64,000 nt of DNA from Minisyncoccota bacterium. Lineage in GTDB: Bacteria; Patescibacteriota; Minisyncoccia; Phycocordibacterales; Zambryskibacteraceae. The stretch spans positions 39,469-103,468 of the forward strand of contig JAGVCW010000029.1 of assembly GCA_020059045.1 (NCBI GenBank), given 5' to 3'. The position numbers were made by a program, and so were the translations under genes. The notes beneath the pieces were generated by a model, which did no database searches, was not told the origin of the DNA, and saw only the letters and a list, made by a program, of their open reading frames with translations. Below are positions 3,738-22,180 of the stretch, in pieces (position 1 is the first letter of the stretch; every line of letters starts with the position of its first letter).

Positions 3738-6080
3738 ATGAAAATTTCCTACAAATGGTTAGAAACATACTTTGATAGCCCCCTTCCCTCTTCAGAAAAG
3801 ATTTCGGAATTATTAACCATACATGCATTTGAGGTTGAAGGAATTGAGAGCCAAAATGGTGATTCAATTTTAAACATAAAAGTACTTCCCGATAGAGCAC
3901 ATGATGCTCTCTCGCATCTTGGCATGGCAAGGGAAGTGGCTCTACTTACTGGGCTACAAATTAAAAATGAGTTTATAAAGCAGAAGGTTGGTGTATTCCC
4001 AGAGTCAAATATCGCAAGAATAGAAGTTGAAAATGAAAAATTATTTCCAAGGCTTACACTGCTAGTAATTGAGAATGTTCGGGTCAACGAGAGTCCAGTA
4101 TGGTTGAGAGAGAGATTGGATTCCATAGGCCAAAAGTCAATAAACAATATTGTAGATGCCACCAATTTTGTAATGTTTGAAATTGGCCAGCCGCTGCATG
4201 CGTATGATGTTTCTAAGCTTGCCGGTGAGGGAGATATAAAAATAGGGGTACGCTACGCAAATGAGGGTGAAATACTTAAAACACTTGACGGTAAGGATCT
4301 TGTCCTAAATAAAGAAAATGTAGTCATATTTGATGGAAACACTGAAAATAAAAAGGCTTTGGGAGTCGCAGGGATAAAGGGTGGGGAGGCAAGCAAGATA
4401 AATTCAAAGACAAAAACTGTTGTCATAGAAGCGGCGAATTTTGACCCAGTGGCAATAAGGCTTTCATCCAAGTCTCTTGACCTACGTACTGATGCATCAG
4501 TCCGATTTGAAAATGGTATTACACCTGAATACACAGCGAGTGCTCTAAGTAGGGTTGCAAACATAATTCTTGATATTGCGAGCAATACAGACACTCGAGT
4601 GGAAGGGATAGCAGATTACTATCCTCGACGTGCAAATCCCTATAAAGTAGGAGTATCGCTTTCAGAAATACAAAGTGTAATTGGCACACAAGTCTCTCAA
4701 AATAAAGTTGAGGAAATTCTTCAGAGGAGAGGATATGAGTGGAAACTTGTAACACCTCGAGAGGAAATTGTGTCTCTTGCACAGAAACTAATTGGCATGC
4801 CCTATAAATTTGGCTCAAGTGTTACATATGACAGTCCAAGAACTTTTGATTGTTCTTCTTTTGTAAGTTATTTGTTTGTTCAGACGGGCATAGCGCTTCC
4901 TAGGATGACAGTTGATCAGTTTGTGTATACAGAGCAAGTTTTGGAAAGTGAATTACAGGATGGAGATTTAGTTTTTATAAATAGTAATGATGGAAAGATT
5001 CACCATGAATCAATAGAGTTTATGCAAGGTACTCCTGTACCGAAAGGTGTAGATCATAACGGAATATATGCAGGAGAGGGAAGTATTATTCATGGGTCAC
5101 CATTTCACAATAAAATCGTAAAGGAGAATATTAGTGAGGTGGTGAGTAGAGGCAGAACTCTTGTGGGCTATAGAAGAGTGTTGGGAATAAATGAGCCTCA
5201 CTTTGTGATTACAATACCCGCCGAGCGTCTAGACTTACGTATAAAAGAAGATTTAATTGAGGAAATAGTAAGAATTTATGGTTATGAAAACATAATTTCA
5301 AAAGAAATTAAAACAGAGGAAGCCGTAAATATTGATAAAAAATCTTATTATATAGAAAAAATAAAAAACTTCTTTGTTTCAGAGGGTTTTTCTGAGATCT
5401 ATTCATATTCATTCAAATCAAGAGGTGTAAGAGAAGTACTTAATCCCATTGCAACCAATAAGGCATTCCTCAGGGAAAATTTGGCTGACGAATTGAAAGA
5501 TGTTATGAAAAAAAACATTTTGAATACTGATCTACTTGGTTTGAGTAAAATTAAACTTTTTGAAATAGGTACAGTTTTCGGCGCAACAAGTGAGAATATA
5601 TCCCTGGCTTTTGCTATAAGTGGGAAGAAGGATGAAGCTTATATAGAGAAAATTAAATCTGCTCTTAATGATTTGCTTCAATCTGAGGTTGTTTATACCG
5701 AAAAGGGAGGGGTAATGGAGGCAAATATCGAGACTCCAATTGAGCGGGCAAATGGTCCACTTCATCCGTATGCATATAAAGGTAGTAAAAATGTAAAATT
5801 TAAGGAATATTCAGTATATCCATTTATTGTTCGAGATTTAGCTGTTTTCGTACCAAATGATTTGCCAAAAGATGCATTGCTCGATTTGATTCGGAAAGAA
5901 GCTGGGGAGCTATTGGTTAACTTGCGTTTGTTTGATGAATTTTCGAAAGATGGAAAAGTTTCTTATGCATATCGTCTTATATTCCAGTCAATAGATAGAA
6001 CTCTTACTGATGAGGAGGTGAATAGTGTTATGACAAAAATTGTGGGTGCGGTGACAGGAATGGGCTGGACTGTAAGATAA
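3738..6080 (+). CDS. pheT: Phenylalanine--tRNA ligase beta subunit with an inserted NlpC/P60 papain-like domain
   Basis: N-terminus MKISYKWLETYF… matches the B1 domain. B5 domain signature (…EEIVRIYGYENI) and a C-terminal FDX-ACB-like end. About 150 aa NlpC/P60-like insert (GMPYKFG…FDCSSFVSYLF…GDLVFINS…VDHNGIYAGEGSIIHGSP) sits inside B5. Confidence 0.9.
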   Translation: MKISYKWLETYFDSPLPSSEKISELLTIHAFEVEGIESQNGDSILNIKVLPDRAHDALSHLGMAREVALLTGLQIKNEFIKQKVGVFPESNIARIEVENEKLFPRLTLLVIENVRVNESPVWLRERLDSIGQKSINNIVDATNFVMFEIGQPLHAYDVSKLAGEGDIKIGVRYANEGEILKTLDGKDLVLNKENVVIFDGNTENKKALGVAGIKGGEASKINSKTKTVVIEAANFDPVAIRLSSKSLDLRTDASVRFENGITPEYTASALSRVANIILDIASNTDTRVEGIADYYPRRANPYKVGVSLSEIQSVIGTQVSQNKVEEILQRRGYEWKLVTPREEIVSLAQKLIGMPYKFGSSVTYDSPRTFDCSSFVSYLFVQTGIALPRMTVDQFVYTEQVLESELQDGDLVFINSNDGKIHHESIEFMQGTPVPKGVDHNGIYAGEGSIIHGSPFHNKIVKENISEVVSRGRTLVGYRRVLGINEPHFVITIPAERLDLRIKEDLIEEIVRIYGYENIISKEIKTEEAVNIDKKSYYIEKIKNFFVSEGFSEIYSYSFKSRGVREVLNPIATNKAFLRENLADELKDVMKKNILNTDLLGLSKIKLFEIGTVFGATSENISLAFAISGKKDEAYIEKIKSALNDLLQSEVVYTEKGGVMEANIETPIERANGPLHPYAYKGSKNVKFKEYSVYPFIVRDLAVFVPNDLPKDALLDLIRKEAGELLVNLRLFDEFSKDGKVSYAYRLIFQSIDRTLTDEEVNSVMTKIVGAVTGMGWTVR

Positions 6081-15411: not shown

Positions 15412-15487
15412 TATACTATATGAAAATTAGAGGAATTGTAGAAGGATTGTGGTTGGTAGAGTGAAGAATCGGATGTATTATAAGTGT

Positions 15488-16024
15488 ATGAAATATTTTA
15501 GAGTGCGTTTGAAAAGTGGTTTTACGCTCATGGAGCTTATGGTTGCTCTCGGTATAGTGGCGCTACTTGTTGCGATTGTTCTAACTAACTTAACGCAAGC
15601 CAAATCACGGGGAAGGGACTCCCAAGTCCGAGCAGATATTGGAAAGATTAGACTTGCACTTGTAAAAGTTAGAGAGAGTAACCCTCTTTATCACTATCCT
15701 GGAACTGCAGGAGCGTATCAATGCATTAAAACTACGGGAACTTGCTTTAAGGGGCAGTACAGTGCAAATACTACGCTCACTTCGGCCATTAGTTCGTACT
15801 TCCCAGGACAAGCTATACCTAAGCCGCCAGGGACAAATACAAGTGAAAATAGACATGACGCATATGTATTAAATCCCTATCTGCCGGCGGCCACTCCACT
15901 TCCAAATGGTCAATATGGACCGGTGCTTATCTGGTATCAAGAGAAGCCAATTCCAGATTGTAAGGGTTATGTAGCACAGCATGAAACAGGAATATATTAT
16001 TGTTACGAACAGCTTCCGTACTGA
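15488..16024 (+). CDS. Type IV pilin / pseudopilin-like protein (prepilin N-terminal motif)
   Basis: KSGFTLMELMVALGIVALLVAIV prepilin cleavage/methylation motif (G|FTLxE) followed by a hydrophobic helix. Start chosen at the Met nearest the signal; the ORF is open from 15449. Confidence 0.6.
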   Translation: MKYFRVRLKSGFTLMELMVALGIVALLVAIVLTNLTQAKSRGRDSQVRADIGKIRLALVKVRESNPLYHYPGTAGAYQCIKTTGTCFKGQYSANTTLTSAISSYFPGQAIPKPPGTNTSENRHDAYVLNPYLPAATPLPNGQYGPVLIWYQEKPIPDCKGYVAQHETGIYYCYEQLPY

Positions 16025-16626
16025 TGGGAAGAACTAGATTTAAGTTTGTTGTAGGAGTAGATGAAGTAGGAAGGGGGCCGCTTGCAGGTCCTGTGACCGT
16101 TGGGGTGTTGGTACTGCCAATACGCAATATTAAACAATTTATTTCCGTTAAGGATTCAAAAAAATTAAGTTCAGAAAAAAGAGAAGAGATGTATAAGCGT
16201 TTATTGAAGCTTCAAAAAAATGAGGAGCTTAGTTTTGCGGTTGTGTCGAGTAGTAACAATGTAATTGATAGGCGGGGGATAAGCGAGGCTCTCAGAATTG
16301 CTACAGAAAAAGCTCTAAGCAAACTGAAGATTTCTCCAGGGGATAGTCAAATACTTCTAGATGGCCTATTGTATGCACCTCAAAAATTTAGGAACCAAAA
16401 GACAATAATAAAAGGGGACGAAAAGATCCCTGTGATCGCACTTGCCTCTATTGTCGCTAAAGTCACTCGCGACAAGTATATGATTCGACTGGCAAGGAAA
16501 TATCCGAAGTATGGATTTGAAATACACAAAGGGTATGGAACAGCTAGACATCGGGCTGCAATAAGGAAATTTGGGGTAACTCCAATACACCGTAAATCAT
16601 TTTTGAAAAATCTTAGTGATAAATGA
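16024..16626 (+). CDS. rnhB: Ribonuclease HII
   Basis: VGVDEVGRGPLAGPV active-site motif. ATGA overlap with the pilin stop codon. Confidence 0.85.
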   Translation: MGRTRFKFVVGVDEVGRGPLAGPVTVGVLVLPIRNIKQFISVKDSKKLSSEKREEMYKRLLKLQKNEELSFAVVSSSNNVIDRRGISEALRIATEKALSKLKISPGDSQILLDGLLYAPQKFRNQKTIIKGDEKIPVIALASIVAKVTRDKYMIRLARKYPKYGFEIHKGYGTARHRAAIRKFGVTPIHRKSFLKNLSDK

Positions 16627-16747: not shown

Positions 16748-16978
16748 ATGGTTGTAAGAATGCGTCATACACGGTCACATACGGCTAATCGCCGTTCTCA
16801 CCATGCTTTAAAGCAGGGCAATTTTGCCATTTGTGATAATTGCGGTGAGAAGAAAATAAAGCACACGTTGTGTGCAAACTGCGGCAAGTATAAAGGCCGG
16901 GTTATAGTAGATGTGATTGGGTTAAACGCAAAGAAGGAGGCCAGGAAGAAAGAGAAAGCAAAGGAAGGGGCAAAGTAG
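16748..16978 (+). CDS. rpmF: 50S ribosomal protein L32
   Basis: RHTRSHTANRRSHHALK…C..CG…H..C..CG.YKGR zinc-ribbon L32 signature. Lys-rich C-terminal tail. The ORF is open from 16616; start chosen at internal ATG 16748. Confidence 0.75.
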   Translation: MVVRMRHTRSHTANRRSHHALKQGNFAICDNCGEKKIKHTLCANCGKYKGRVIVDVIGLNAKKEARKKEKAKEGAK

Positions 16979-17134
16979 TCACATTTAAAAGTTTGTGTTT
17001 CTAGCTCTTTAATATGGTCCTGTTAGAAGCCGCAATCGCGGGAGAAAACAAAAATAGTAGTAGAATAATGGGGTTGGCTTTTTATCATAATAATTATAAA
17101 AACATTTCGCAGTTCGCGATCTGTTTCTAACGGG

Positions 17135-18034
17135 ATGGCAAATCGTCACTTGGCAAGATCGGTTGTTCTACAGTCACTCTTTGAATGGGACTTTAGCAAA
17201 AAGTCCTCGGATGGTGCTATGGAAATACTTGCACGTGATGCAGAGGAGTTTGCTCCAGGCATGAAAGACACTTCTTTCATGAATGATCTTCTTAAGGGAA
17301 TTCTCGGTAAGCTCAAAGATATTGATGCGATTATTAAGAAGGCAGCACCCGACTGGCCAATTGAGAAAATATCGATAATTGATAGAAATATTCTAAGACT
17401 TGGGCTCTTTGAACTTCTTTTTTCAGATAGAGAGCAGGTCCCACCAAAAGTGGCTATAAATGAAGCAATTGAACTTGCCAAATCTTTTGGTGGAGAGACA
17501 TCTGGTAAGTTTGTAAATGGTGTTCTGGGTGCCGTGTACAAAGAGATGGGTGAACCCGGCAAAGACGCAGTATCTACGCGAAAAAAGAACAATAGAGATA
17601 TCCCAGATAGTGAATTACCGGTAGAAAATTACGGTGGGGCGATAGTATATGCAAGTGAGAAAAATAAAATATTTGTTGCTTTTGTTCATGATGTGTTTGG
17701 GCACTGGACAATATCGAAAGGTCACCTAGAGAGTGGTGAGGATGTAGAAGTGGGAGTAAGACGTGTGATCGAAGATGAACTCGGACTTGTGATAAATCTC
17801 AAAGAAAAGATTGGTGAAAATGCTTATGTGGCCTATGATCCAGATAAAGGGAAAATAAAGAAGCGTGTAACATATTATTTGGCGGATTGTAAGTTTGGTG
17901 AGCTCAAAGCGCCAAAAGGTGGTGGATTAGATGATATAAGATGGTTTGAAGTTGGGGATATTGGAGATCTAAACTTCTATGATGACATCTTGCCATTAGT
18001 GACAAAAGGGGTGACAATGCTGCCCAACAAATAG
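17135..18034 (+). CDS. nusB: NusB antitermination factor fused to a C-terminal NUDIX hydrolase domain
   Basis: N-terminal 140 aa is NusB (RHLARSVVLQSLFEWD…). C-terminal 150 aa carries a Nudix box (GHLESGEDVEVGVRRVIEDELGL, i.e. Gx5Ex7R[EV]xxEExGU). Confidence 0.8.
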   Translation: MANRHLARSVVLQSLFEWDFSKKSSDGAMEILARDAEEFAPGMKDTSFMNDLLKGILGKLKDIDAIIKKAAPDWPIEKISIIDRNILRLGLFELLFSDREQVPPKVAINEAIELAKSFGGETSGKFVNGVLGAVYKEMGEPGKDAVSTRKKNNRDIPDSELPVENYGGAIVYASEKNKIFVAFVHDVFGHWTISKGHLESGEDVEVGVRRVIEDELGLVINLKEKIGENAYVAYDPDKGKIKKRVTYYLADCKFGELKAPKGGGLDDIRWFEVGDIGDLNFYDDILPLVTKGVTMLPNK

Positions 18035-18152
18035 TAGATACGAATATACGAATAAATAAACGTCCTTGCCTGCCGGCAGGCAAGCAGGTACGAATGGATA
18101 AGAACAAGGCAATACAAATTAAGTAAATGCATATTGGTAGATAAAGTATTTT

Positions 18153-18851
18153 ATGAAAATGGATAATTTTGATGAATTCGAAAAAAAGGCAGGCACTAAC
18201 TTCCAGGATAAAAACCTTCTTAAACAGGCTTTTGCTCACCGCTCATATCTAAATGAGAATAAGGACTTTCCATTGGGCCACAATGAACGTCTAGAATTCC
18301 TGGGTGATGCTGTACTTGAACTTGTGATTACTGACTATTTGTATAAAAAGTATCCGGAGAAAACAGAAGGCGAATTAACAAGTCTGCGCTCGGCTCTTGT
18401 GAACTCAACCACCTTATATAACGTGGGTGTGAACTTGTCTGTAAATGATTTTCTACTTCTCTCTCGCGGAGAAGCCAAGGATACGGGAAGGGCAAGGCAA
18501 TACATACTAGCAAACACAATGGAATCGATAATTGGTGCGATATATCTGGATCAAGGTTATGAAAAATCAAAAGATTTCATTTATGCACACATCACTCCTC
18601 TAATAGATAAAGTTATTGAAGATGAAAGTTGGATTGACTCTAAAAGTCTTTTCCAGGAAAAGGCGCAAGGGCATGTAAGTGTGACACCCTCGTATAAAAC
18701 TATTAAAGAAAGTGGTCCAGACCATGATAAGAATTTCACTATTGGTGTTTATCTAAAGGATGAGTTGATAGCAACTGGCGAAGGGAACTCGAAACAAGAT
18801 GCTGAGCAAGAGGCGGCAAGGAGAGCTCTAGAGGAAAAAGGTTGGGAATAA
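18153..18851 (+). CDS. rnc: Ribonuclease III
   Basis: RNase III signature ERLEFLGDAVLELV. C-terminal dsRBD. Confidence 0.9.
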   Translation: MKMDNFDEFEKKAGTNFQDKNLLKQAFAHRSYLNENKDFPLGHNERLEFLGDAVLELVITDYLYKKYPEKTEGELTSLRSALVNSTTLYNVGVNLSVNDFLLLSRGEAKDTGRARQYILANTMESIIGAIYLDQGYEKSKDFIYAHITPLIDKVIEDESWIDSKSLFQEKAQGHVSVTPSYKTIKESGPDHDKNFTIGVYLKDELIATGEGNSKQDAEQEAARRALEEKGWE

Positions 18852-19351
18852 TTTAAGTAGGATAGTGTAAAAAGTAAATAGTAGACACTTCGTATAAATA
18901 CAAAGCGCGGACCCTTGTGGGTGCCGCGCTAGGAGAACCATTAACCAATCCCTGTTTTCTCACACTTCTCGTCGCAGCAACGCCCTAAAACAAACTACTT
19001 TTTCATTCTGTTGGCGAAAGCTTACTACGTCTTCGAAGTGCTAGATTACGGGGCTACGATCCCATGACACACAACTTGAGTGTATGAGAAAGACAGCGTT
19101 TGGAAAATGAGCATTCACCGACGACGGTGTTCAAGAGAAGAATCAAGTTCTCCTCAATGTCTTTTTTGTCGGTGACAGGCTTACGCCCTTTAACGAGATG
19201 CTAGCTCGGTGCGGGCAGACTTCGCCCGGTCAATGTAGTCTTTGTTAATAATACTCATTTTGAGTAATAATGTCAAATCTGATAATAGCTCTTGTTTGTT
19301 AAATGAAAAGCAAATTAAAAACCACACATATGTGTGGTAAGAAGGTTGAAA

Positions 19352-19726
19352 TTATCTTGTAACCACATGTGCGGAGCGACCTGCTCCAACAGATGGTACT
19401 GGTATGCGCAATTCGCTCGAACCCAGGTTTCCGTCCTTGGGTGTCAGGGTATTCCGAATGCTACTCACCAGACTCTCAACAATTGCTTGCCGAAAGGTTT
19501 TTTCTTCTTGAGTAGGCGGACCACTAACCTTGAATCCTACACCCCGACACGCAGAAATCATCATCTCACGAATCCGATCCTGCTCTGCCGGTGGAAACAT
19601 TTCTCTGGCCAAATTCTCGCCCATTTTCGTAGTAACGTTTGCAAGATCCTGATCGGTAATGGTTGTCCCGTTCGTTACATTCAGAGGCATATTCCGTTCC
19701 TGGTTAGAAGTAAAAGAGCGGTACAA
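19352..19726 (-). CDS. Hypothetical protein
   Basis: 124-aa ORF convergent with rnc. No recognisable motif. Confidence 0.3.
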   Translation of the reverse strand: MYRSFTSNQERNMPLNVTNGTTITDQDLANVTTKMGENLAREMFPPAEQDRIREMMISACRGVGFKVSGPPTQEEKTFRQAIVESLVSSIRNTLTPKDGNLGSSELRIPVPSVGAGRSAHVVTR

Positions 19727-19903
19727 GAAGGTATCCTACAAACTTAAATTCAAATGTCAATTTTAGTTTATGGACGGTATTGGGAGATAAATAAAGATGA
19801 ATGAGTATCAGGTAAGGATTACATTAAGGGATTAAGACCTTCTAGCTTTGGAGATTTCCGAGTGCTAAACTTATACAACTTAATAAACTTATTAACTATA
19901 TAA

Positions 19904-22180
19904 ATGCTCCTCAAAAGCATAGAACTCTCCGGATTTAAATCCTTTGCAAAGAAGGCTTCTTTCCAGTTCACATCTTCTATATCTGCTATTGTCGGGCCTA
20001 ATGGCTCTGGTAAATCGAATGTTGCAGAAGCATTCCGCTTTGTACTTGGAGAGCAGTCTATTAAGTCGATGCGTGGTAAGAAAGGTGAGGATCTGATCTG
20101 GAATGGGGGTAAGGATGAGCCAAGGTCAAACAGGGCAGCAGTTAAGGTGGTGTTTGATAACTCTAAGAAATTTCTAAACATTGATTACCCAGAAGTTGCT
20201 ATTGAGAGAGTGGTCCACAGAGATGGTGTAAATGAATACCTAATAAATGGGAGCCAGGTCCGCCTGCGTGACGTGGTGGAACTTCTTTCTAGTGCACATA
20301 TTGGATCATCAGGGCACCACATAATCTCTCAGGGTGAAGCAGACAGAATACTAAATACAAATCTCAAAGAAAGAAGAGAGATGATAGAGGATGCACTGGG
20401 ATTGAAGGTGTATCAGTACAAGCGTCTAGAAAGTGAAAGAAAGCTTGAAAAGACGGAAGAAAATATAAAGCAAATCGAGTCGCTAAGAAAAGAAATCGCG
20501 CCACACCTGAAGTTTCTTACAAAACAGGTAGAAAAAATTGAAAAGGCAAAAAATATGAAGGAGGAGCTTATGCAACTGGCTTTGTTCTACTTAAAAAAAG
20601 AAGATGAATATATAAAGGCAAGTGAAAAGGAAATTCTAGAAAAGAAGAAACCTCTTATACAGAAAAAGGAGAAATTAGAAAAAGAGCTCCGAGAGGCAAA
20701 AGCGGTTCTTGAAAAATCCAAATCCAGGGATGAGAAAACCGAGGAGGTCATAGACCTTGAACAGAAAATACAGAATACAAGAAAAGAGAAGGATCTTCTT
20801 CTTAAAGATATCGGTAGGCTTCAAGGAGAAATAGCGGCAGAAGAAAGAGTGATAGCGCGTGAAAAGATCGGCTCATCTATGGATGGTGTGGTTCTCTCGC
20901 AGAAGGAGATAGAGGATTTCAAGAGTGGAATTACAAAAGAGATAGAGGTTGCAAAAACGAGTGAGGATATAGTGTTTGTAAGAACAGCGCTTGAAAAAAT
21001 AAGTAGTCTTCTACTTGAGTTCCTTAAGGATAAAGGGAAGAACGCAAGTGATAGAAGCAAGGAGGCGGAAAATGGGGTTATAAAACTAAAATCTAATCTT
21101 TCTCTAAATGAAGATAAGCTTTCAAAGCTTGTGCACAGTGAGAGGACTCTCGAAGAAACATACGGGAAGATAAGGCAGGATATTGAAAAAGAAAAGGATA
21201 CAAACCGTGACGCAGAAAAAACACTGTTTAGGATAGTGTCTGAAGAAAACACTTTAATTGCAGAACTTTCTGTGCTTAAAAGTGAAGAAGAAAGAATACA
21301 CTTAGTCGTAACAGATTTTAAGCGAGAACTTGAAGAATGCTCACACCTTATTGGACGGCAAGTACTTTCATATGAAAAATATGAAATAGAGGGAGATGCT
21401 AACAAAGGTGAAGGGAGAGAGGTCCAAGAAGAAAGAAGACGGAATATGGAGAAAATAAAGATAAGGCTTGAAGATTCAGGTCTCGGGGGGGCAGAAGAGC
21501 TAATGAAAGAATTTTCTGAAACTAAAGAGAGGGACGAATTCCTAGAGCGTGAACTTGTTGATATGGACAAGTCGGCCATCTCACTAAAAGGGTTAATCGA
21601 AGAACTTGGCACTAAGCTTGATATTGAATTCAAAATAGGAATTGAAAGGATAAACAAGGAATTTCAGAAATATTTTGAAGTTATGTTTGGTGGGGGCGAA
21701 GCAAGTTTGAAAGTTAAAAATCAAATAGTAAAAAAGAAAAAAATAGATGAAGACTTTATCGGAGACGAACTGGAGTCAGTAGAAGATTTATCAGCCGAAA
21801 CTTCAGAGGAAGCTTTGGCGGACAAGGAAGGAATTGATATTGAAGTAAATTTGCCACGTAAAAAAATTAAAGGACTTATGATGCTTTCTGGAGGAGAAAG
21901 AGCGCTTACATCTATTGCACTTCTATTTGCAATGTCGCAGGTTAATCCACCACCCTTTATTATCCTCGATGAAACTGATGCGGCGCTAGATGAGGCAAAC
22001 TCAAAAAAGTATGGAGACATGATTGAAAGCTTGTCCAAACACTCTGAGCTCATTCTTATTACTCACAACAGGGAGACAATGTCACGAGCTGGAATTATAT
22101 ATGGAGTAACTATGGGTAGTGGAGGAGCGTCTAAAGTGCTGTCTATTCAATTTGAAGAAGCCGTGGTCGTAGCTAAGTAA
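19904..22180 (+). CDS. smc: SMC-like chromosome segregation ATPase (short, no obvious hinge)
   Basis: N-terminal Walker A (IELSGFKSFAKK…VGPNGSGKSNV). Long coiled-coil middle. C-terminal signature LSGGERALTSIALLFAM and Walker B ILDETDAALD. 758 aa, versus about 1100-1200 aa for canonical SMC. Confidence 0.75.
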   Translation: MLLKSIELSGFKSFAKKASFQFTSSISAIVGPNGSGKSNVAEAFRFVLGEQSIKSMRGKKGEDLIWNGGKDEPRSNRAAVKVVFDNSKKFLNIDYPEVAIERVVHRDGVNEYLINGSQVRLRDVVELLSSAHIGSSGHHIISQGEADRILNTNLKERREMIEDALGLKVYQYKRLESERKLEKTEENIKQIESLRKEIAPHLKFLTKQVEKIEKAKNMKEELMQLALFYLKKEDEYIKASEKEILEKKKPLIQKKEKLEKELREAKAVLEKSKSRDEKTEEVIDLEQKIQNTRKEKDLLLKDIGRLQGEIAAEERVIAREKIGSSMDGVVLSQKEIEDFKSGITKEIEVAKTSEDIVFVRTALEKISSLLLEFLKDKGKNASDRSKEAENGVIKLKSNLSLNEDKLSKLVHSERTLEETYGKIRQDIEKEKDTNRDAEKTLFRIVSEENTLIAELSVLKSEEERIHLVVTDFKRELEECSHLIGRQVLSYEKYEIEGDANKGEGREVQEERRRNMEKIKIRLEDSGLGGAEELMKEFSETKERDEFLERELVDMDKSAISLKGLIEELGTKLDIEFKIGIERINKEFQKYFEVMFGGGEASLKVKNQIVKKKKIDEDFIGDELESVEDLSAETSEEALADKEGIDIEVNLPRKKIKGLMMLSGGERALTSIALLFAMSQVNPPPFIILDETDAALDEANSKKYGDMIESLSKHSELILITHNRETMSRAGIIYGVTMGSGGASKVLSIQFEEAVVVAK

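Follow-up and report, generated by a model that had tools for sequence, protein, structure and literature searches.

Few bacterial transcription factors are as conserved and as well studied as NusB, which binds S10 (NusE) and boxA and acts in antitermination; to our knowledge, all NusB structures solved so far consist of a helical domain of about 140 residues with nothing added to it. In the rrn antitermination complex of E. coli an enzyme fold, the inositol monophosphatase SuhB, has been recruited structurally, and we know of no described Nus system in which a direct nucleotide input reaches rRNA transcription and maturation. Nudix domains that are fused to another functional module and no longer act as enzymes are exemplified by NUDT9-H of the TRPM2 channel, where the box lacks a glutamate and the ligand is bound and not hydrolysed (PMC4974056, PMC6461439).

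In the window analysed here, by which we mean the whole 64,000-nucleotide stretch of DNA, a NusB domain and a Nudix domain are encoded in one polypeptide, a single ORF of 299 aa in which both Pfam domains score above their cut-offs, as the earlier note on this DNA had expected of a domain search. Current annotation of such fusion proteins reads "NusB" only and hides the second domain, and our literature search found no published description of a NusB-Nudix fusion. The locus is laid out as follows.

16000..16626, + strand: rnhB (RNase HII), the upstream and less constant neighbour (Pfam RNase_HII, E 6.6e-41)
16748..16978 (approximate), + strand: rpmF (L32), the conserved upstream neighbour (Pfam Ribosomal_L32p, E 2.3e-14)
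17135..18034, + strand: nusB::nudix, complete ORF with ATG start, 299 aa plus stop, carrying both Pfam domains
17135..17551, + strand: NusB domain, residues 1-139, all-helical (Pfam, TIGR01951, PDB matches, Foldseek, AF2)
17552..17620, + strand: linker, residues 140-162 (low pLDDT, column conservation)
17621..18022, + strand: Nudix-fold domain, residues 163-296, of the Ap4A/ApnA-hydrolase type (Pfam, phmmer against PDB, Foldseek)
17720..17788, + strand: Nudix box GHLESGEDVEVGVRRVIEDELGL, residues 196-218 (sequence; alignments to CT771 and NUDT2)
17765..17767, + strand: V211 codon GTG, replacing the glutamate of motif position 16 (sequence, alignments)
18035..18152, + strand: nusB::nudix-rnc spacer, with an imperfect palindrome at 18060-18089 (inverted-repeat search)
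18153..18851, + strand: rnc (RNase III), the conserved downstream neighbour (Pfam Ribonuclease_3 plus dsrm)

The proposal that residues 1 to about 140 are a normal NusB was borne out. Pfam NusB (PF01029) matches residues 7-136 (E 1.3e-33, 116.6 bits against a cut-off of 23.1) over profile positions 3-133 of 133, and with 129.3 bits the protein also clears the cut-off of the NCBIfam nusB equivalog TIGR01951 (88.35). Residues 2-138 are helical in the AF2 model, with pLDDT mostly 81-95, and superimpose on the Aquifex NusB chain 3r2d_B with a Foldseek TM of 0.89 and an rmsd of 1.8, at 30-32% identity, while in the PDB sequence matches T. maritima NusB reaches 6.8e-21 and E. coli NusB 5e-18. The motif KVAINEAIELAKSFGxExSxKFVNGVL of the C-terminal helix is common to this protein and E. 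coli NusB; D118 of the latter is T122 here in the HMMER alignment. The gene product is in all likelihood the organism's NusB, that is, its S10- and boxA-binding antitermination factor. Neither a second NusB or Nudix gene nor an rRNA operon was found in the 64-kb window, and rpsJ was likewise not identified there. The placement of the gene between rnhB/rpmF and rnc, as previously described, was confirmed by Pfam for each neighbour at the coordinates listed. Genes for RNase R and rpoBC lie farther along from nusB::nudix.

An identical protein is already on record at NCBI (P0001), a 271-aa JGI record is identical to the window protein over its length, and there are full-length homologues that are 61-74% identical to it. 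The best 120 protein clusters span 271-340 aa, and both Pfam domains are present in 118 of these 120. From a scan of the GTDB species representatives 80 loci were kept as the species-level set; all 80 match the query from residue 1 to at least residue 280, and in 79 the match extends to residue 293 or farther. Lineage labels, where given, are Zambryski-, Kaiser-, Nomura-, Vogel- or Giovannonibacteria, Parcubacteria or Paceibacterota, and the two that were checked belong to the Parcubacteria group. The same fusion is therefore found in related genomes, in 80 of 80 Parcubacteria loci returned; the architecture, which had been called unusual, is indeed absent from model organisms, but it is the regular form of NusB in all 80 of these loci. 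A frameshift or assembly error near 17560 joining two separate genes is refuted by the uninterrupted architecture that 80 independent species-level assemblies share with the best 120 clusters, and by the junction YKEMGEPGK, which is nearly invariant across homologues; judged from assemblies and not from raw reads, the chance of such an artefact is negligible.

The order rpmF - nusB::nudix - rnc is conserved in 78 of the 80 loci, and rnhB lies near the fusion in 54. The gap between the fusion and rnc is mostly short (median about 40 nt), with some genes overlapping by 4 nt, and rnc and nusB::nudix are probably co-transcribed. Even the distant member P0216, whose box is canonical and whose Nudix half is about 31% identical, is found in the context rpmF-fusion-rnc-smc. 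The fusion is old: it is present in all 80 Parcubacteria-type genomes returned, and its position between rpmF and rnc is fixed. The RNA-processing gene run to which the earlier note had drawn attention is thus strongly conserved (rpmF-nusB::nudix-rnc-smc); it should be noted, however, that the linkage of rnc and smc is an ancient arrangement, as in Firmicutes, so that the conserved run is in itself no evidence for decapping.

The spacers on either side of the gene were also inspected. The core of the E. coli boxA, GCTCTTTAA, occurs at 17004-17012 in the rpmF-nusB spacer; its chance expectation per window is a mean of 1.04, with at least one match in 72 of 100 shuffles, and when the region ahead of the fusion was searched in the 80 related loci, only 4 contained the 7-base core CTCTTTA and only 1 the full 9-mer. 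No conserved k-mer was found in the rpmF-nusB spacer of the related loci beyond A/G-rich coding tails. Autoregulation of nusB::nudix through boxA was rejected, the match being at chance level and poorly kept in relatives. The nusB::nudix-rnc spacer folds at -26 kcal/mol (z -3.1), and the corresponding spacers of relatives repeatedly contain long hairpins.

As to the C-terminal half, Pfam NUDIX (PF00293) matches residues 186-276 (E 1.8e-11, 44.6 bits against a cut-off of 21.1), the AF2 model of residues 163-294 is built of strands and helices, and Foldseek returned 526 matches at E <=0.001, hundreds of which are Nudix structures. The phmmer search against PDB gave CT771 (6.4e-08), Rv2985 (1.7e-05), the Aquifex Ap4A hydrolase Aq_158 (5.9e-04) and NUDT2 (2.8e-03), and the Foldseek matches include 9cxx, 5gg5, 3i7u (TM 0.87), 1ktg, 4mpo and 1vc8, with ApnA hydrolases or MutT1 in nearly every row of the top 25; the Nudix domain of NrtR is also among the Foldseek matches (3gz8, E 4.7e-09). 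The best matches in both sequence and structure are thus the asymmetric Ap4A/ApnA hydrolases C. trachomatis CT771, Aquifex Aq_158, human NUDT2, the C. elegans enzyme, T. thermophilus Ndx1 and mycobacterial MutT1/Rv2985, with which the Nudix half has the motif W-T-x-x-K-G in common. Judging from sequence and modelled structure, the Nudix half is a descendant of an Ap4A/ApnA hydrolase of the CT771 / Aq_158 / NUDT2 / MutT1 type.

Kinship with the RNA-decapping enzymes RppH and NudC, which had been suggested for this half, did not survive these comparisons. Against the RppH model NF001936 the protein reaches 18.8 bits, far short of the cut-off of 118, and no RppH occurs in the top 50 Foldseek matches. 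NudC appears in the Foldseek list at ranks 32, 41 and 45 only, with weak superpositions (two with rmsd >10), and inspection of the translation did not reveal the NudC motif SQPWPFPxS in residues 219-299 downstream of the box; the zinc site of NudC is absent here, and NusB stands in place of its N-terminal zinc-binding domain. What is held in common with RppH and NudC is the superfamily and the general Nudix fold, and an RNA-related setting is plausible for both. An identity as RppH or NudC is ruled out by the NF001936 score, the Foldseek ranks and the missing equivalent of RppH E53, all the more as ApnA hydrolases match best. The Nudix domain is acidic (pI about 5.2; median of the fused family 5.4), which argues against generic RNA-backbone binding and leaves a basic, generic RNA-binding surface on this domain unsupported.

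The Nudix box has the canonical spacing with two departures from GX5EX7REUXEEXGU, RE being replaced by RV and EE by DE. Its layout is G196 x5 E202 x7 R210 V211 I x D214 E215 x G217 L, so that the signature at G196-E202-R210-x211-x214-E215-G217 reads GERVDEG and the protein lacks the complete 23-residue box (GX5EX7REUXEEXGU). Of the C-terminal Nudix box and fold reported previously, the fold is therefore secure (PF00293, AF2) and the box is present but incomplete (V211, D214). V211 aligns with E53 of E. coli RppH and with E58 of human NUDT2. In RppH the motif comprises residues 38-60 and the E53A mutant is inactive (PMC6061791); the NUDT2 mutants E58A and E63A are represented by PDB structures 4ijx and 1xsa, of which 4ijx is titled E58A.

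Across the family, 16 of the 81 sequences at species level match the strict 23-residue motif, as do 44 of the 119 closest clusters and 7 of the 44 representatives that are fused. A natural orthologue with a canonical box is P0056 from Zambryskibacteria (GEREEEG). When representatives at 50% identity were compared, the fully canonical signature was present in 6 of 38 fused against 18 of 30 stand-alone-like sequences (Fisher p = 2.6e-4), the latter set containing at least one non-canonical member that is really a fusion broken at a contig edge (P0129); in a chosen set the box was kept in all 12 full-length stand-alones and in 7 of 53 fused forms. Most fused forms have thus lost at least one box residue that their stand-alone relatives keep. 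The substitutions in fused forms are K, V, I or A at 211, K at 214/215, N, S or D at 217 and S at 196, and in an NJ tree they are scattered, with the canonical fusions nearest to the stand-alone enzymes. Glutamate occupies position 211 in 48 of 125 fused sequences, and in the window's own sub-family E202, R210, E/D214, E215 and G217 are 84-97% conserved while 211 toggles between V and E. Every signature residue is kept in a fifth to a third of the orthologues (16-26 of 81), and this minority, together with the conservation in the sub-family, suggests that some members, possibly including the window protein, may still hydrolyse something. The catalytic base differs among Nudix enzymes (PMC4974056, PMC5526541), and the loss of E211 is accordingly suggestive and no proof of inactivity. 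Boxes are nevertheless degenerate in most fusions, and for this reason what selection has preserved here cannot be hydrolytic decapping.

The nucleotide pocket presents a different pattern. In a MAFFT alignment with human NUDT2, K195 corresponds to K42, Y231 to Y82, K243 to K89, Y282 to F128 and D284 to E130. In NUDT2 the P1-site sulphate is bound by K42 and Y82; K89 of the human protein, unlike the corresponding Plasmodium residue, makes no contact with it, and the adenine is stacked by a loop-5 tyrosine and F128 and hydrogen-bonded by E130 (PMC4734340). Among the 125 fused sequences K195 is K in 124, Y231 is Y in 120, K243 is K or R in 121, Y282 is Y in 122 and D284 is D in 111, a conservation of 89-99% at the phosphate- and adenine-contact positions. 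The residues equivalent to those with which Ap4A/ApnA hydrolases hold the phosphate (K195, Y231, K243) and the adenine (Y231, Y282, D284) are thus kept here, and the domain and its pocket also persist in lineages where 214/215 has become K or 217 has become N; conserved residues that are specific to the fused form are few. The property conserved throughout the family is the purine-nucleotide/polyphosphate pocket and not hydrolysis, the box glutamates having decayed repeatedly.

The two halves are joined by a linker with a near-invariant (G)EPGK start, followed in the column conservation by a variable Lys-rich stretch, and AF2 pLDDT falls below 50 at residues 140-155, indicating disorder. With an AF2 pTM of 0.52 there is no fixed inter-domain packing and no predicted contact between NusB and Nudix. 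Mean pairwise identity in the fusion family is 0.66 for NusB, 0.55 for Nudix and 0.46 for the linker; both the NusB and the Nudix half are under purifying selection.

Three close stand-alone relatives were examined in their genomic context. The apparent stand-alone P0129 is the broken fusion mentioned above and is followed by rnc; P0148, which lies in a phage-like region, does stand alone and has a canonical box; and the contig of P0182 is too short to tell a stand-alone from a fusion. No split nusB and nudix pair, which would represent the pre-fusion state, was found among these three. One relative within the Nudix clade, P0236, is fused to RNase E/G and has two boxes, each of them degenerate. 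Its Nudix region, used as a query, returned no relatives, and P0236 was set aside as independent support for a role at RNA ends, being real but a singleton.

The retention of the pocket together with the decay of the box glutamates and V211 leads us to infer that the domain is mainly a nucleotide-binding module. The explanation that we prefer, and which we consider to have about an even chance of being correct, is that this NusB has, tethered to it, a module which binds purine nucleotides and catalyses weakly or not at all, a reading drawn from the conservation pattern and from analogy with other Nudix domains. A flexible linker of about 20 residues would tether the ApnA-hydrolase-derived domain to NusB, and NusB would carry this module, with slow or no turnover, on the elongation complex. 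The domain might sense an adenine (di)nucleoside polyphosphate and so modulate assembly of the Nus complex, or it might keep the nascent leader RNA close to the complex by binding its 5'-terminal (p)ppA end. Taken further, the NusB of Parcubacteria could be a ligand-responsive antitermination factor whose pseudo-enzyme domain binds an alarmone of the adenine (di)nucleoside polyphosphate kind or the 5'-pppA end of the nascent pre-rRNA leader, thereby tuning Nus-complex assembly or holding the leader for processing by the RNase III that the next gene encodes; this is a speculative extension that we think has only a small chance of being right. It counts against a binding input that a fusion can persist without functional coupling and that, with no inter-domain contact predicted, the model shows no route from ligand binding to NusB.

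The coupling of decapping to transcription via NusB, as proposed in the earlier note, would require an active RNA 5'-end enzyme on NusB, either an RppH-like pyrophosphohydrolase or a NAD/Np4N decapping enzyme, which processes nascent (r)RNA during transcription. A Nudix fold tethered to an elongation-complex factor is what such a process would use, and ApnA-type Nudix enzymes can act on RNA ends, E. coli RppH also removing Np4 caps and human NUDT2 being reported to dephosphorylate 5'-ppp RNA. The flanking genes belong to RNA metabolism (rnhB and rnc, with RNase R and rpoBC farther on), activity is conceivable for the 16-26 of 81 orthologues whose signatures are complete, and P0236 links the same Nudix clade to RNase E/G. 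Set against these points, V211 stands at the site of the inactive RppH E53A and of NUDT2 E58A, boxes are degenerate in most members, the tests for RppH and NudC membership were negative, and P0236 has two degenerate boxes and no detectable relatives; decapping is therefore the less likely reading, and we regard it as quite improbable.

It is also conceivable, though unlikely, that the domain is a housekeeping hydrolase of Ap4A/ApnA or of oxidised or ordinary NTPs, fused to NusB when the intergenic region was lost from a streamlined genome, in which case the halves would be independent and only their expression coupled. Its nearest relatives of solved structure are ApnA hydrolases that stand free, the pocket for the substrate has been conserved, the linker is disordered without a predicted domain contact, and in the small Parcubacteria genomes some genes abut or overlap by 4 nt. 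A working hydrolase should however keep its box, which persists in 18/30 and 12/12 stand-alones against 6/38 and 7/53 fused forms, and domain and pocket are still present in lineages with K214/215 or N217; nor is a nearly invariant EPGK start expected of a passive tether. A Nudix fold serving purely as a protein scaffold in the antitermination complex, with no nucleotide ligand, fits the dispensable catalytic residues, the purifying selection on the domain and the precedent of SuhB in the rrn complex. Against it, the best-conserved residues are NUDT2 phosphate and adenine contacts and not a new surface patch, and few residues are conserved specifically in fused forms, so that a pure scaffold seems very unlikely.

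In relation to the known systems, then, this locus adds to NusB what no solved NusB protein has, an extra C-terminal region of about 160 residues made up of linker plus Nudix domain, and it joins to NusB a domain otherwise related to Ap4A/ApnA hydrolases. An additional nucleotide-pocket domain has been kept on NusB in at least 80 species of a large and little-understood bacterial radiation with tiny genomes while its catalytic residues decayed. Should the domain bind Ap4A-like molecules or RNA 5' ends, rRNA synthesis or processing would be linked to nucleotide signalling in a way unseen in model bacteria, and the model is directly testable with recombinant protein. The closest parallels to the preferred reading, a NusB carrying a nucleotide-binding module, are TRPM2 NUDT9-H and NrtR, in which, as in the family-level pattern here, a Nudix fold with a degenerate box and a retained pocket is attached to a functional module; if the reading is correct, an example from bacterial transcription would join this short list of Nudix pseudo-enzymes. 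The domains of TRPM2 and NrtR come from ADP-ribose pyrophosphatases and bind ADP-ribose, whereas that of the fusion derives from the ApnA-hydrolase branch and its ligand binding is predicted, and the partner is a channel or a DNA-binding domain in those proteins and an antitermination factor here.

The nusB::nudix gene, which encodes NusB followed by a C-terminal Nudix-fold domain, lies in a gene run annotated with Pfam as follows.

16000-16626, + strand, RNase HII (rnhB)
about 16748-16978, L32 (rpmF)
17135-18034, + strand, nusB::nudix, a single ORF with an ATG start and 299 codons
18153-18851, RNase III (rnc)

These flanking genes are those named in the earlier note, and the domain search confirmed its claim of NusB and NUDIX in one polypeptide: a complete NusB domain (E 1.3e-33) covers residues 7-136 and a NUDIX domain (E 1.8e-11) residues 186-276, both scoring above the Pfam gathering score, and with 129.3 bits the product clears the 88.35-bit cut-off of the NCBIfam nusB equivalog TIGR01951. 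The wider window (41.7% GC) contains housekeeping genes, i.e., pheS, pheT, gyrB, a class II aminoacyl-tRNA synthetase, dnaE, smc, RNase R, rpsP, trmD, rpoB, rpoC, dnaG and rpoD; no second NusB-like or Nudix-like ORF was found within the 64 kb.

Directly 5' of rnhB there is a pilin-like ORF (15449-16024, +) whose N-terminus matches the type IV methylation motif (E 6.3e-06); as it overlaps the longest rnhB ORF (16000-16626, +) by 25 nt, rnhB probably starts further downstream. The pheT product (3738-6080, +), a phenylalanyl-tRNA synthetase beta chain, has B3_4, B5 and FDX-ACB domains together with an internal NlpC/P60 peptidase-domain match (residues 353-472, E 5.5e-17); such an insertion within an aminoacyl-tRNA synthetase is unexpected. 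The SMC homologue (19904-22180, +) has only 758 aa, which suggests a much shorter coiled coil than in the typical bacterial SMC of about 1,180 aa; it is likewise short in about 65 related loci (roughly 750 aa by tblastn spans), with 852 aa in locus L081. The gap of about 1 kb between rnc and smc (18852-19903) holds small ORFs only, among them a minus-strand ORF of 124 aa without a Pfam match (19352-19726), and minus-strand promoter-like sites at 19276 and 19760; as the gap measures from 13 nt to about 2 kb in relatives, it looks like a variable insertion spot.

The same fusion is present in related genomes. A GTDB scan with one genome per species returned 592 relatives, from which 80 loci were kept; in all 80 the query matched from residue 1 to at least residue 280, and in 79 to at least residue 293. 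Both Pfam domains were also found in 118 of the 120 closest 90%-identity clusters, which are 271-340 aa long and, two records of the window's own protein excepted, 61-74% identical to it; where a source gives them a name it is 'NusB' only. Lineage labels among the kept loci, where named, are Zambryski-, Kaiser-, Nomura-, Vogel- and Giovannonibacteria, Parcubacteria and Paceibacterota, and the two names which were checked both belong to the Parcubacteria group of Patescibacteria; about 30 more records bulk-labelled 'uncultured Candidatus Saccharibacteria' were treated as carrying a generic label. In the alignment of closest homologues the junction YKEMGEPGK hardly varies, which, short of raw reads, excludes the sequencing error at about 17560 that the earlier note had considered as a possible cause of a merged gene; no split nusB and nudix arrangement was seen among the close 'stand-alone' relatives inspected, and an artefactual joining of two genes can practically be dismissed.

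The gene order around the fusion is fixed, with rpmF 5' and rnc 3' in 78 of 80 loci and smc downstream in 67; upstream there is rnhB in 54 and a divergent dnaE in 47. The distance to rnc is mostly short (median about 40 nt, with a 4-nt overlap in some loci), so that co-transcription with rnc is likely. As the order is fixed and a distant member with a Nudix half of about 31% identity (P0216) shares the gene context of the other fusion loci, the fusion and its location must be old. Mean pairwise identity is 0.66 for NusB, 0.55 for Nudix and 0.46 for the linker; purifying selection acts on both halves. A stand-alone Nudix protein with a canonical box (P0148, locus L084, 5001-5453) groups with the fused clade, and its surroundings are phage- or mobile-element-like (integrase, DNA methylase and a Phage_rep_O-like gene).

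The stretch that separates nusB::nudix from rnc (18035-18152) is unusually well folded (-26 kcal/mol, z -3.1), with a palindrome at 18060-18089. Among 24 related loci whose spacers measure 60-250 nt, 16 had a z below -2, the lowest being -7; these spacers often form near-perfect hairpins of 19-60 bp, without shared sequence and without a T-run on the plus strand (structured examples are L061 6910-7040, L058 6907-7010, L053 2991-3194, L067, L072 and L025). By analogy with E. coli rnc, the hairpins could serve as stem-loops for RNase III processing or for autoregulation in the rnc leader. A boxA-like GCTCTTTAA at 17004-17012 was rejected as a chance match.

The AlphaFold2 model of the fusion protein, made from a 66-sequence alignment (mean pLDDT 84), has an all-helical domain (residues 2-138), a disordered stretch (residues 140-155, pLDDT <50) and an alpha/beta domain (residues 163-294); a pTM of only 0.52 suggests two domains strung together like beads, without confident packing of NusB against Nudix. 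The NusB half matched NusB of T. maritima (6.8e-21) and E. coli (5e-18), shares the motif KVAINEAIELAKSFGxExSxKFVNGVL with the solved NusB proteins that it matched, and aligns structurally with Aquifex NusB as seen in the NusB-NusE-RNA complex (TM 0.89); by sequence and predicted fold the protein belongs to the NusB family. The Nudix half gave sequence matches to CT771 of C. trachomatis (6.4e-08), Rv2985 of M. tuberculosis (1.7e-05), Aquifex Ap4A hydrolase (5.9e-04) and human NUDT2 (2.8e-03), and structural matches to Rv2985, M. smegmatis MutT1, Aquifex 3i7u (TM 0.87, rmsd 2.2), C. elegans 1ktg, CT771 4mpo and the T. thermophilus Ap6A hydrolase 1vc8; it is a Nudix superfamily member by predicted fold and stands nearest to the asymmetric Ap4A/ApnA hydrolases. 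An RppH/NudC-like nature, as the earlier note had proposed, was not borne out: RppH was absent from the top 50 structural matches, NudC gave weak ones only, and the RppH NCBIfam model scored 18.8 bits against a cut-off of 118, so that identity with either enzyme was rejected. We are highly confident of these assignments and of the evolutionary statements on the fusion.

The Nudix box of the window protein (residues 196-218, G-HLESG-E-DVEVGVR-R-V-I-E-D-E-L-G-L) has canonical spacing; valine (V211) takes the place of the RE glutamate and Asp that of the first EE glutamate, and the protein lacks the complete box expected of a competent hydrolase. V211 is motif position 16, and as the motif of E. 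coli RppH spans residues 38-60 this position corresponds to E53, E53A being the standard inactive mutant (PMC6061791). In a MAFFT alignment V211 falls on human NUDT2 E58, the residue changed in structure 4ijx ('E58A mutant') and in 1xsa, where the sequence reads RATQEE. The NUDT2 sequence used for this mapping agrees with the 1xsa fragment and the residue numbers in PMC4734340. In the window's sub-family position 211 is V in 52 and E in 50 of 120 sequences and is the sole signature position which toggles; E202, R210, E/D214, E215 and G217 are 84-97% conserved, so that metal or polyphosphate coordination, perhaps with residual catalysis, may persist. The catalytic base differs among Nudix enzymes (PMC4974056, PMC5526541).

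A full HMMER search with the Nudix half, covering 1.84 billion representatives, yielded 747 matches at E <=0.001 (123 at <=1e-10); the NusB half was also present in 59 of the best 150, with Nudix identity down to about 27%. When the seven signature residues (G-E-R-E-E-E-G) were scored, the box was fully canonical in 6 of 38 fused 50%-identity representatives versus 18 of 30 stand-alone-like ones (Fisher p = 2.6e-4; at least one 'non-canonical stand-alone' of the latter is really a truncated fusion), in 7 of 53 fused sequences of a curated domain alignment, and in all 12 chosen full-length stand-alone relatives. The strict 23-residue motif (GX5EX7REUXEEXGU) was found in 16 of 81 sequences at species level, 44 of the 119 closest clusters and 7 of the 44 fused representatives. 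Ten further species (loci L005, L007, L015, L043, L046, L048, L051, L053, L054 and L065) form a sub-clade that keeps all seven residues and departs from the canonical motif by another route, a 5-residue insertion in the GX5E loop (GKIGDxPEIANET..., with the REIKEE helix intact). Box substitutions are non-conservative (K/V/I/A at 211, K at 214 or 215, N/S/D at 217, S at 196) and scattered over the neighbour-joining tree, with canonical fusions nearest the stand-alone enzymes. A 1074-aa metagenomic protein (P0236, locus L082, 6001-9225) carries S1 and RNase E/G domains and, at its C-terminus, two Nudix repeats that belong to the same ApnA-like clade, each with a degenerate box (e.g., RTVKGELGL); as a search with its Nudix region detected no relatives, it is for now a singleton.

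In human Ap4A hydrolase the sulphate at the P1 site is held by K42 and Y82, and the adenine stacks with Y82 and F128 and forms a hydrogen bond with E130; K89 makes no sulphate contact in this structure, although its Plasmodium counterpart does (PMC4734340). Across the fused family the ligand-contact positions aligned to these residues are near-invariant, unlike the box glutamates, a pattern which indicates a conserved pocket and dispensable catalytic glutamates.

Residues of the window protein, their NUDT2 counterparts and conservation in 125 fused sequences.
K195, NUDT2 K42: K in 124
Y231, NUDT2 Y82: Y in 120
K243, NUDT2 K89: K/R in 121
Y282, NUDT2 F128: Y in 122
D284, NUDT2 E130: D in 111
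W191, NUDT2 W38: W in 124
V211, NUDT2 E58: E in 48

The window protein is the organism's NusB, to which a domain of ApnA-hydrolase descent is flexibly tethered. The selected role of this domain would be the binding of an adenine nucleotide or polyphosphate, with hydrolysis slow or absent in many members including the window's; we see about an even chance that binding rather than hydrolysis is its main function. Given the tether to NusB, binding would occur at the boxA/S10/RNAP complex, where the domain could either sense a (di)nucleoside polyphosphate and so modulate Nus-complex formation, or capture the nascent leader at its 5'-(p)ppA end and keep that end close to the complex for RNase III processing at a later stage. 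With its acidic pI of 5.2, the domain would be expected to contact RNA, if at all, at the pocket and not along the backbone.

Active co-transcriptional processing of RNA 5' ends, the model of the earlier note, could still apply to orthologues with a canonical box; it is disfavoured by V211, the family-wide decay of the box and the RppH and NudC results, and we consider it quite improbable. That the domain is a housekeeping ApnA/NTP hydrolase fused without functional coupling is unlikely, since the box is kept in stand-alone relatives and not in the fused proteins, yet the latter retain the domain. A pure protein scaffold has a precedent in SuhB of E. coli; the conserved residues are however those which contact the ligand, and this reading seems highly improbable.

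A full-text literature search found no paper describing the NusB-Nudix architecture. It joins a known factor to a known fold, and this combination, undescribed and widely conserved, carries a pseudo-enzyme signature. For the ligand-binding role proposed here there is precedent in TRPM2, where the NUDT9-H Nudix domain has a degenerate box and acts as a ligand sensor (PMC4974056, PMC6461439), and in NrtR, likewise a degenerate-box Nudix ligand sensor, of which 3gz8 is among the structural matches of the window's Nudix half.
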